Assembly: GCF_055900595.2 (NCBI RefSeq)
Contig: NZ_CM148325.1
Length of the DNA: 64,000 nt
Reading direction: 5' to 3' (one strand)
Of this stretch, positions 1 to 2,787 are shown one piece after another. The notes under the pieces are model-generated. The model searched no databases, had not been told where the DNA came from, and saw nothing but the letters and a program-made list of their open reading frames with translations. Both the position numbers and the translations under genes were made by a program. Position 1 is the stretch's first letter, and the number at the start of each line of letters is the position of its first letter.

Positions 1-718
1 AACCGATGACGAACGCGCACAGCTTTTATATGAGCGCGGAGTGTTGTATGATAGTCTCGGTCTGAGGGCATTAGCGCGTAACGATTTTTCGCAAGCGCTG
101 GCAATCCGACCGGATATGCCTGAAGTATTCAATTACTTAGGCATATATTTAACGCAGGCAGGCAATTTTGATGCTGCCTATGAAGCGTTTGATTCTGTAC
201 TTGAGCTTGATCCAACTTACAACTACGCGCACTTGAATCGCGGGATCGCATTATATTACGGCGGTCGTGACAAGTTAGCGCAAGATGATCTGCTGGCGTT
301 TTATCAAGACGATCCCAATGATCCTTTCCGTAGTCTGTGGCTTTATCTCGCCGAGCAGAAGCTCGATGAGAAGCAGGCTAAAGAAGTGTTAAAACAGCAC
401 TTCGAAAAATCGGATAAGGAGCAGTGGGGATGGAACATTGTCGAGTTCTACCTGGGCAACATTAGCGAACAAACGTTAATGGAAAGGCTCAAGGCGGACG
501 CAACGGATAACACCTCGCTCGCTGAGCATCTCAGTGAAACCAACTTCTATTTAGGTAAGTACTACCTAAGTCTGGGGGATTTGGACAGCGCCACGGCACT
601 GTTCAAACTGGCGGTTGCCAACAACGTTCATAACTTTGTTGAGCACCGATACGCATTGTTGGAATTATCGCTCCTGGGCCAGGACCAAGATGACCTGGCA
701 GAATCGGACCAGCAATAG
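1..718 (+). CDS. nlpI: Lipoprotein NlpI, TPR-repeat protein; 5' end lies upstream of the window
   Basis: Reading frame is open from base 2; translation (…[26 protein letters not shown]…ESDQQ*) matches NlpI C-terminal region as I recall it; stop at 716-718. Confidence 0.9.
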
Positions 719-824
719 CTGACGTACACATCAGCCCGTAATCTTTTTTGATTGCCATCACCTTAACGGGTGAGGGCGTTGTTGTTCGTTAATACACCTA
801 CTTTGAGCCGGTTCACACTTTTCA

Positions 825-905
825 ATGAAAATTGCTGATCAATTTCATGATGAGTTATGTAGACTGGCCGCCATTAATTTTGAGGCACACGTACTACATG
901 GCTGA
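825..905 (+). CDS. yrbN: Small 26-aa upstream ORF ([26 protein letters not shown]) ending on the deaD start codon
   Basis: ATG at 825; TGA at 903-905 overlaps deaD ATG (898-900) in the sequence ATGGCTGA. Not in the ORF track (under 60 aa). Matches my recollection of the small protein YrbN. Confidence 0.55.
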
Positions 906-2787
906 ATTCGAAACCACTTTTGCAGATCTGGGCCTGAAGGCTCCTATCCTTGAAGCCCTTAACGATCTGGGTTACGAAAAACCATCTCCAATTCAGGCAG
1001 AGTGTATTCCACATCTGCTGAATGGCCGCGACGTTCTGGGTATGGCCCAGACGGGGAGCGGAAAAACGGCAGCATTCTCTTTACCTCTGCTGCAAAATCT
1101 TGATCCTGAGCTGAAAGCACCACAGATTCTGGTGCTGGCACCGACCCGCGAACTGGCGGTACAGGTTGCTGAGGCAATGACGGATTTCTCTAAACACATG
1201 CGCGGCGTAAACGTGGTTGCCCTGTACGGCGGCCAGCGTTATGACGTGCAATTACGCGCCCTGCGTCAGGGGCCGCAGATCGTTGTCGGTACTCCAGGCC
1301 GTCTGCTGGACCACCTGAAACGTGGCACTCTGGACCTCTCTAAACTGAGCGGTCTGGTTCTGGATGAAGCTGACGAAATGCTGCGCATGGGCTTCATCGA
1401 AGACGTTGAAACCATTATGGCGCAGATCCCGGAAGGTCATCAGACCGCTCTGTTCTCTGCAACTATGCCGGAAGCGATTCGTCGCATTACCCGCCGCTTT
1501 ATGAAAGAGCCGCAGGAAGTACGCATTCAGTCCAGCGTGACTACCCGTCCTGACATCAGCCAGAGCTACTGGACTGTGTGGGGGATGCGTAAAAACGAAG
1601 CGCTGGTACGTTTCCTGGAAGCGGAAGATTTTGATGCGGCGATTATCTTCGTTCGTACTAAAAACGCGACTTTGGAAGTGGCAGAAGCTCTTGAGCGTAA
1701 CGGCTACAACAGCGCTGCACTGAACGGTGACATGAACCAGGCGCTGCGTGAGCAGACTCTGGAACGCCTGAAAGATGGTCGTCTGGATATCCTGATTGCG
1801 ACCGACGTTGCGGCCCGTGGCCTGGACGTTGAGCGTATCAGCCTGGTAGTTAACTACGATATCCCGATGGATTCCGAGTCTTACGTTCACCGTATTGGTC
1901 GTACAGGCCGTGCGGGGCGTGCTGGTCGTGCGCTGCTGTTCGTTGAGAACCGCGAGCGTCGTCTGCTGCGCAACATTGAACGCACTATGAAGCTGACCAT
2001 TCCGGAAGTAGAACTGCCGAACGCAGAGCTGCTGGGCAAACGCCGTCTGGAAAAATTCGCCGCTAAAGTACAGCAGCAGCTGGAAAGCAGCGATCTGGAT
2101 CAATACCGTGCACTGCTGAGCAAAATTCAGCCGACTGCAGAAGGTGAAGAGCTGGATCTCGAAACTCTGGCAGCCGCACTGCTGAAAATGGCACAGGGTG
2201 AACGTACTCTGATCGTGCCGCCAGATGCGCCGATGCGTCCGAAACGTGAATTCCGTGACCGTGATGACCGTGGTCCGCGCGATCGTAACGACCGTGGCCC
2301 GCGTGGCGACCGTGAAGATCGTCCACGTCGTGAACGTCGTGATGTTGGCGATATGCAGCTGTACCGTATTGAAGTGGGCCGCGATGATGGTGTTGAAGTT
2401 CGTCATATCGTTGGCGCGATTGCTAACGAAGGTGACATCAGCAGCCGTTACATCGGTAACATCAAGCTGTTTGCTTCTCACTCCACCATCGAACTGCCGA
2501 AAGGTATGCCGGGTGAAGTGCTGCAACACTTTACGCGTACTCGCATTCTCAACAAGCCGATGAACATGCAGTTACTGGGCGATGCACAGCCGCATACTGG
2601 CGGTGAGCGTCGTGGCGGTGGTCGTGGTTTCGGTGGCGAACGTCGTGAAGGCGGTCGTAACTTCAGCGGTGAACGCCGTGAAGGTGGTCGTGGTGATGGT
2701 CGTCGTTTCAGCGGCGAACGTCGTGAAGGCCGCGCGCCGCGTCGTGATGACTCTACTGGTCGTCGTCGTTTCGGTGGTGATGCGTAA
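898..2787 (+). CDS. deaD: ATP-dependent DEAD-box RNA helicase DeaD/CsdA (629 aa)
   Basis: Helicase motifs in translation: [30 protein letters not shown]; RG/RGG-rich C-terminal tail. Start placed at MAEFETTF (898) rather than the ORF-track ATG at 832. Confidence 0.95.

Follow-up and report, generated by a model that had tools for sequence, protein, structure and literature searches.

The 26-codon open reading frame (ORF) immediately upstream of deaD (csdA) in the 64,000-nt stretch of DNA analysed here (the window) is the annotated Escherichia coli gene yrbN, and a cross-species comparison suggests that translating yrbN matters, rather than the peptide that it encodes. Here we establish the identity of this gene, the geometry of its junction with deaD, and the conservation of both its reading frame and the arms of the RNA helices predicted to form around it. 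The interpretation that we favour, to which we give about even chances, is that yrbN is a cis-acting leader ORF whose translation would open the deaD start site and whose termination near the deaD AUG would couple the translation of the two genes. DeaD (CsdA) is a major cold-shock helicase whose regulation is only partly understood, and yrbN is the only translated element known in the deaD leader.

Identity and geometry of the ORF upstream of deaD

The 3′ part of nlpI (ending at 718) is followed in the window by a 179-nt intergenic region, deaD (898-2787) and mtr. The original prediction had described a 26-codon ORF running from ATG to TGA at 825-905, and it is present exactly so in the sequence, the ORF list and the RefSeq annotation. 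The features of the junction are:

825..905, + strand: yrbN coding sequence (ATG 825-827, 26 sense codons, TGA 903-905; ORF list and RefSeq WP_010723222.1)
898..2787, + strand: deaD (csdA) coding sequence (629 amino acids; RefSeq annotation), directly downstream of the leader ORF
898..905, + strand: yrbN/deaD overlap ATGGCTGA (8 nt; deaD ATG 898-900, yrbN TGA 903-905)

In the RefSeq record, yrbN occupies positions 1626-1706 of the locus, corresponding to 825-905 of the window, and deaD starts at 1699, corresponding to 898. A 301-nt query around the ORF found a match of at least 99% identity in 5425 of 5426 complete E. coli genomes, with the RefSeq label 'yrbN: protein YrbN'. The peptide matches the NCBIfam equivalog family NF033440 (small_YrbN) over residues 1-26 of 26 with a score of 76.3 bits (cutoff 33), and its UniProt accession is given as C1P618 in a transcriptome paper. 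Neither the gene nor its 8-nt overlap is new, as a 2021 bioRxiv preprint (10.1101/2021.03.08.434349) had already described yrbN as a 26-amino acid gene inside the csdA 5′ untranslated region (UTR) with 8 nucleotides overlapping.

The junction had been given as ATGGCTGA, which is correct, and the TGA had been said to share two nucleotides with the deaD ATG, which it does not. The bases read A898 T899 G900 G901 C902 T903 G904 A905; the two codons have zero bases in common, G901 and C902 separate the ATG from the TGA, the yrbN stop spans deaD codons 2-3, and it is the two reading frames that overlap, by 8 nt (898-905). Judged from this single sequence, the ORF is no more than chance expectation, with 54 ORFs of at least 20 codons listed in the same 3.5 kb, and no Shine-Dalgarno (SD) sequence is present within the 20 nt upstream of its ATG (GAGCCGGTTCACACTTTTCA). 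We accept the ORF as real because of comparative evidence: its frame is the only stop-free one, the loci are intact and in-frame stops are absent.

Position of yrbN in the deaD leader

A promoter scan identified a deaD promoter within nlpI:

25..60, + strand: deaD promoter inside nlpI (TTTATA-16-TATGAT, −10 element at 47-52; promoter scan)

Ojha & Jain mapped the deaD transcription start at −838 (window ~60) and mutated the TATGAT −10 element. Since transcription starts 838 nt upstream of the deaD ATG, yrbN lies within the deaD 5′ UTR and falls in its last 73 nt, in line with the original prediction, which had placed the ORF inside a long, cold-regulated leader. DeaD autoregulation is 25-fold, acting through mRNA stability and Rho-dependent termination (Ojha & Jain), and is Rho- and RNase-E-dependent via the 838-nt leader, while a 2025 review (PMC12360218) lists DeaD as a cold-responsive case of Rho antitermination with 'exact mechanism undetermined', beside uORF-mediated examples. 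Ojha & Jain do not mention yrbN. The preprint suggested that the leader represses expression (10.1101/2021.03.08.434349); its GFP fusions gave no fluorescence whether or not they included the yrbN segment, and are therefore uninformative on whether deaD depends on yrbN.

These reports bear on a different role for the ORF, in which translating yrbN would act negatively on deaD or would tie it to Rho or RNase control. In a repressive variant, terminating ribosomes would sit over the deaD AUG and block fresh initiation there; in a Rho/RNase variant, ribosomes on yrbN would affect how often Rho terminates, or how readily RNase E gains access, towards the leader's 3′ end, in the manner of tnaC or mgtL. 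Such a role would fit the repression suggested in the preprint, the listing of deaD beside uORF examples of cold-responsive antitermination, and the range of Rho termination in vitro, 400-900 nt from the deaD transcription start (Ojha & Jain), which includes yrbN (765-845 nt). However, deletion of the leader from −820 to −101 abolished both autoregulation and Rho dependence (Ojha & Jain), and because the last 100 nt, including yrbN, are retained in this Δ(101-820) construct, the mapped determinants of both lie upstream of yrbN. There is also no intrinsic terminator after yrbN, and the peptide has no conserved arrest-type C-terminus that can be separated from the constraint on the deaD start site. 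We consider this role improbable.

Conservation of the yrbN reading frame across Enterobacterales

The comparison set consisted of 80 Enterobacterales loci, one genome per species, drawn from the Enterobacteriaceae, Hafniaceae (Edwardsiella, Hafnia) and Yersiniaceae (Serratia, Ewingella, Chimaeribacter). Loci were chosen by their DeaD N-terminus, without reference to yrbN, which keeps the sample free of bias toward the ORF; 78 of the 80 had enough upstream DNA to be informative. Conservation across the Enterobacteriaceae had been named by the original prediction as a check on the ORF, and yrbN proved to be intact in all 78 informative loci, including those of the Hafniaceae and Yersiniaceae, with an ATG start, an open frame of 24-26 codons and 42 distinct peptides in total. 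Its stop falls inside deaD, at 8 nt in 71 loci and at 11 nt in the remaining seven (the Serratia/Ewingella/Chimaeribacter group). Wherever the end of nlpI was located (72 of 75 informative loci), the order is nlpI-yrbN-deaD and the intergenic region measures 171-187 nt.

Three further properties distinguish this frame. It is the sole stop-free frame of the three in 72 of 72 distinct sequences. Length changes within yrbN are only 0 or ±3 nt, against every value from −6 to +11 nt in the adjacent intergenic stretch. When only the variable positions were shuffled, an in-frame stop arose 46% of the time, compared with none in the 46 distinct ORF bodies observed.

The deaD frame is itself open from 829 in E. 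coli, and many database entries for DeaD have 646 or 651 amino acids, as would be expected if the region encoded an N-terminal extension of DeaD starting at ATG 847 (646 amino acids) or TTG 832 (651 amino acids). This candidate (829-897, deaD frame) was rejected because the extension is not conserved between species: seven sequences interrupt the deaD frame with stops 2-5 codons before its ATG, and many lack the in-frame ATG further upstream. The RefSeq start, moreover, gives 629 amino acids, and we attach almost no weight to an extension. The public entries of 646 and 651 amino acids are over-extended through yrbN; one Salmonella DeaD entry carries the name 'cysteine sulfinate desulfinase', presumably through confusion over the name csdA. 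Together with this non-conserved extension, the frame, indel and stop evidence argues that selection keeps the yrbN frame open and its end tied to the deaD start.

A search with full-length DeaD returned only near-identical E. coli and Salmonella clusters. Six more distant DeaD loci (72-51% identity) were obtained from a search of 50%-identity representatives, and the upstream sequence was read in four of them (L083, L085, L086 and L087). The closest of these out-group loci, whose DeaD is 72% identical, keeps the pnp-nlpI-deaD synteny and has a 28-codon uORF that ends 12 nt before the deaD ATG with no overlap; it aligns poorly with yrbN, and its sequence is again predicted to fold onto the deaD start site. 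The upstream sequences of the three other loci have no clear counterpart of yrbN, and the gene tables of L088 and L089 show different neighbours. On these data the yrbN element appears restricted to Enterobacterales, and the conservation across 'gammaproteobacteria' described in the preprint is unsupported by this small sample of four distant upstream sequences.

Predicted RNA structures at the junction

The most stable structure predicted at the junction is a hairpin, here called hairpin B, in which the middle of yrbN pairs with the deaD start site:

853..873, + strand: hairpin B 5′ arm GAGTTATGTAGACTGGCCGCCAT (yrbN codons 10-17; near-invariant; minimum-energy pairs)
881..903, + strand: hairpin B 3′ arm (deaD SD GAGG 882-885 with a 12-nt spacer, AUG 898-900 and the first base of the yrbN stop)

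Hairpin B has 19 pairs between 853-873 and 881-903, to which the printed fold adds a closing pair, U851-A905. The local fold has a predicted energy of −19.5 kcal/mol (z = −3.54), and 1 of 200 shuffled sequences was equally stable. The deaD AUG (898-900, with 858-856) and the GG of the SD are paired in the predicted structure. For each of the 36 distinct junction sequences, folding gives hairpin B as the structure of lowest energy (−14.6 to −21.1 kcal/mol, mean −18.1 kcal/mol), and the prediction persists in species with 3-nt deletions in the 3′ arm. Across the alignment, 91.6% of the cells of hairpin B are paired compared with 17-42% in slid controls, a control that is biased by taking the structure from the E. 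coli fold. A covariation test found no compensatory substitutions in hairpin B, but is uninformative because both arms are nearly invariant, and the case for a real hairpin is thus made by predicted thermodynamics and conservation. An Rfam 15 scan of positions 1-1200 returned only chance-level matches (E ≥ 0.88, far below gathering scores). Within the 5′ arm, ATGTAG at 857-862 places a start codon directly before a stop in the third frame; it is conserved in most species, lost where TGT is replaced by CGT, and is probably a by-product of the helix sequence.

Analysis of 72 sequences with RNAalifold predicted a second pairing for the same part of yrbN, involving a conserved block upstream of the ATG, and a small hairpin at the yrbN start:

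802..822, + strand: near-invariant 21-nt block TTTGAGCCGGTTCACACTTTT (20 of 21 columns invariant; no SD), just upstream of the yrbN ATG
827..846, + strand: small A/U hairpin at the yrbN start (GAAA 827-830 with UUUC 843-846; loop formed by codons 3-6; RNAalifold consensus)

In this second pairing, helix A, positions 807-813 (GCCGGUU) pair with 862-868 (GACUGGC), and helix A and hairpin B compete for 862-868. When the nascent transcript is folded, helix A gives the predicted minimum-energy structure for each of the 54 distinct sequences (mean −17.9 kcal/mol); with the full junction present, the helix A fold averages 1.75 kcal/mol above the global minimum. The four pairs of the 827-846 hairpin are unchanged in 72 of 72 sequences, and its loop varies at all codon positions.

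Constraint on the RNA and on the peptide

The pattern of variation in yrbN differs from that of an ordinary coding sequence. Column entropies at codon positions 1, 2 and 3 of yrbN are 0.36, 0.42 and 0.53, compared with 0.10 at positions 1 and 2 and 0.90 at position 3 for deaD codons 16-144 in the same species, and codon periodicity is therefore absent in yrbN by this comparison. Three blocks are invariant at all three codon positions: 802-822, which is non-coding, 852-873 (codons 10-17) and 882-888, which contains the deaD SD (GAGGCAC), where GAGGCA is invariant in 72 of 72 sequences and the next C in 71 of 72. Codons 3-6 and 17-19 are variable at all three positions, about as much as intergenic DNA. 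Within yrbN, the mean entropy is 0.18 at positions paired in the predicted helices and 0.77 at unpaired positions (p = 6e-7), whereas codon position has no explanatory power for the variability (p = 0.50). The 802-822 block has a mean column entropy of 0.014, compared with 0.65 in the remaining intergenic region (72 sequences); it occurs once in E. coli genomes, and the window has no further meaningful match to it.

If yrbN acts in cis, its peptide sequence would largely be a by-product of these RNA-level constraints. The C-termini of YrbN (VLHG, RLHG, ALHG, VLHD and VHDY), where an arrest motif of the SecM, TnaC or ErmCL type would be expected, vary and are encoded by the deaD start site itself. 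In the core DEL[C/R/S]RLAA, RNA- and peptide-level constraint are inseparable, and its conservation could equally reflect a function of the peptide. YrbN might be a trans-acting small protein, such as a cold partner of DeaD, the ribosome or the degradosome, transcribed and translated together with deaD, with the overlap ensuring matched expression. The curated equivalog family NF033440 is in keeping with this, as is the motif F-x-[D/V]-E-L-[C/R/S]-R-L-A-A, which is conserved in the 42 distinct peptides. Hemm et al., who are said to have named yrbN in 2008, reportedly detected its chromosomally SPA-tagged product. In Erwinia amylovora, yrbN is annotated and is up-regulated about as much as a DEAD/DEAH family helicase gene. 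The conserved residues, however, exactly match the RNA helix arms and the deaD SD, and the residues encoded in the loops vary like intergenic DNA. A protein function is also at odds with the missing codon periodicity, with a length that varies from 24 to 26 residues, with the replacement of Cys by Arg or Ser, and with a Pfam search of the peptide that found no domain. A trans-acting role therefore seems to us unlikely, if worth keeping in mind.

The opposite view, that the ORF is incidental, would have the region conserved only as RNA or DNA (hairpins, or protein- or sRNA-binding sites), with any ribosomes there functionless. It can draw on the invariance of the conserved blocks at every codon position, the non-coding nature of the 21-nt block before the ATG and the lack of an SD for yrbN. 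RNA constraints alone, though, do not predict that indels are all multiples of three, that the variable loop positions are free of stops, or that the distance of the stop into deaD is 8 or 11 nt in every one of the 78 loci, and we regard an incidental ORF as very unlikely.

A proposed role for yrbN translation in opening the deaD start site

The cis-acting reading that we favour brings together the conserved frame and hairpin B. The deaD ribosome-binding site (GAGG 882-885 and AUG 898-900) would be buried in the hairpin by pairing with yrbN codons 10-17. A ribosome would initiate at the SD-less, A/U-rich yrbN AUG, melt hairpin B as it translates yrbN, and terminate at UGA 903-905, 5 nt past the deaD AUG, at which point the deaD start site would be exposed or reused through translational coupling. 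Here we infer that hairpin B forms in vivo, that yrbN is translated efficiently enough to open it, and that deaD translation depends on yrbN. Initiation on yrbN may be inefficient, as it has no SD and its AUG lies within a weak hairpin. Translational coupling or uORF-mediated control of deaD by yrbN, as the original prediction proposed, is plausible from the comparative data.

Neither the pattern of a frame that is kept while its peptide is not, nor the hairpin between codons 10-17 and the deaD start, was found in the searchable literature. This comparative and structural pattern is what the present analysis adds; it sharpens the coupling hypothesis and leaves the category of the feature unchanged. 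If yrbN translation does gate the deaD start, it would add a translational layer to the Rho/RNase-E circuit and provide another clean bacterial case of a conserved uORF that is selected for being translated and not for its product. If yrbN does nothing, it is one more small annotated ORF without an assigned function.

A more elaborate possibility is that the last ~100 nt of the deaD leader act jointly with the leader ORF as a conserved RNA switch between two states. Helix A and the yrbN-AUG hairpin would form first and compete with the deaD-masking hairpin B, the two states lying ~2 kcal/mol apart in the models; which of them prevails, and hence how much DeaD is made, would depend on temperature, on how fast ribosomes move along yrbN or on the helicase activity of DeaD. 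A search of both alternative folds for a clear difference between an open and a closed deaD start site was unsuccessful: with helix A enforced, the deaD AUG is predicted to be still largely paired, now with GCCAU at 870-874. We hold this two-state reading to be doubtful. If it were true, yrbN would serve to read out a sensor of cold or of translation rate, and would be linked to the unexplained cold-dependent regulation of deaD.

Comparison with known leader ORFs and cold-shock leaders

In the attenuation systems of ermC and cat, the downstream ribosome-binding site is hidden by a hairpin, one arm of which contains the short leader ORF, and a ribosome on the leader opens the hairpin. These systems depend on a drug to stall the ribosome at a particular nascent peptide, and their leaders finish well before the start of the regulated gene. 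A leader positioned in a hairpin arm is common to ermC, cat and (as predicted) yrbN, but yrbN has no identifiable stalling signal and ends on the deaD start.

The closest demonstrated E. coli case, by analogy, is the leader ORF of iraD (Park et al. 2017, PMC5574718), which is likewise short and has a stop overlapping the start of the gene that it regulates. There the SD of iraD is sequestered by RNA structure and iraD is translated via coupling (PMC5574718), arrangements whose counterparts at deaD are predicted. The two differ in that coupling and a regulator (CsrA, binding at the start of the leader ORF) were shown experimentally for iraD, whereas coupling of yrbN to deaD is put forward here from sequence comparison and folding, and in that yrbN has no SD. 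As in tnaC and mgtL (reviewed in PMC12360218), the deaD leader is a documented Rho target that contains a small ORF, although the determinants of deaD autoregulation and Rho dependence map upstream of yrbN. An amino acid-sensing attenuator of the trpL type was considered for yrbN and rejected, as no terminator-like site was found in 1-1100 and the peptide has no repeated codon runs.

The deaD leader resembles the cspA-type cold-shock 5′ UTR in being long, structured, attached to a cold-shock gene and possibly capable of two alternative folds, but no leader ORF precedes cspA. Another cold-shock gene, cspI, has a small ORF directly before it: ynfR, a 21-amino acid ORF between ynfN and cspI whose tagged product is strongly up after cold shock (VanOrsdel et al. 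2018, PMC6001520). YnfR does not resemble YrbN in sequence, and a comparison of the two, as small ORFs beside cold-shock genes, may be worthwhile. The 'yrbN_PAIR_0' of a figure legend in that paper was considered as a second ORF beside yrbN and rejected, since none of the detected proteins tabulated there maps near nlpI or deaD; it is most likely YnfR upstream of cspI.

Other elements in nlpI and the deaD leader

Directly after the nlpI stop, AGCTGACG (716-735) is invariant in 72 sequences and can form a GCUGA/UCAGC stem. An older primer-extension 5′ end at −173 (window ~725), as cited by Ojha & Jain, falls inside this segment. Within it, TGACGTACACA (720-730) matches the cspA 'cold box' TGACGTACAGA (E. 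coli cspA 5′ UTR, 108-118 of our cspA locus, L082) at 10 of 11 positions, a similarity that could be due to chance. The cspA leader also contains GCCGAAAGGCACACTT (L082 223-238), which we take to be the 'upstream box' of older literature. The block before the yrbN ATG (GCCGGTTCACACTT, 807-820) and the deaD SD region (GAGGCACAC, 882-890) both resemble GCCGAAAGGCACACTT, the likeness to the deaD leader including a GCCG...CACACTT motif, and these matches are short and could be chance.

Between nlpI and yrbN, positions 752-790 form a predicted hairpin with a UCACC (757-761)/GGUGA (769-773) stem and outer GCCC:GGGC pairs, in which an A-U pair covaries to G-C in 10 sequences. A run rich in U comes next, reading GUUGUUGUUCGUU here and UUUUUUGUUCGUU in other species. 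The arrangement resembles a leaky terminator or attenuator within the deaD leader, and was not picked up by a simple terminator scan.

Two patches of nlpI, codons 101-130 and 221-250 (~135-224 and ~495-584), show low synonymous variation, with third-position entropies of 0.13-0.22 compared with about 0.5-0.9 elsewhere, and contain invariant runs at 182-200 and 528-541. As this part of nlpI is also part of the deaD 5′ UTR, the patches are candidate RNA elements embedded in the coding sequence. Finally, the cspA gene used in these comparisons (L082 261-473; product MSGKMTGIVKWF...) carries the RefSeq pipeline label 'cspE' in E. coli NZ_CP025859.1.
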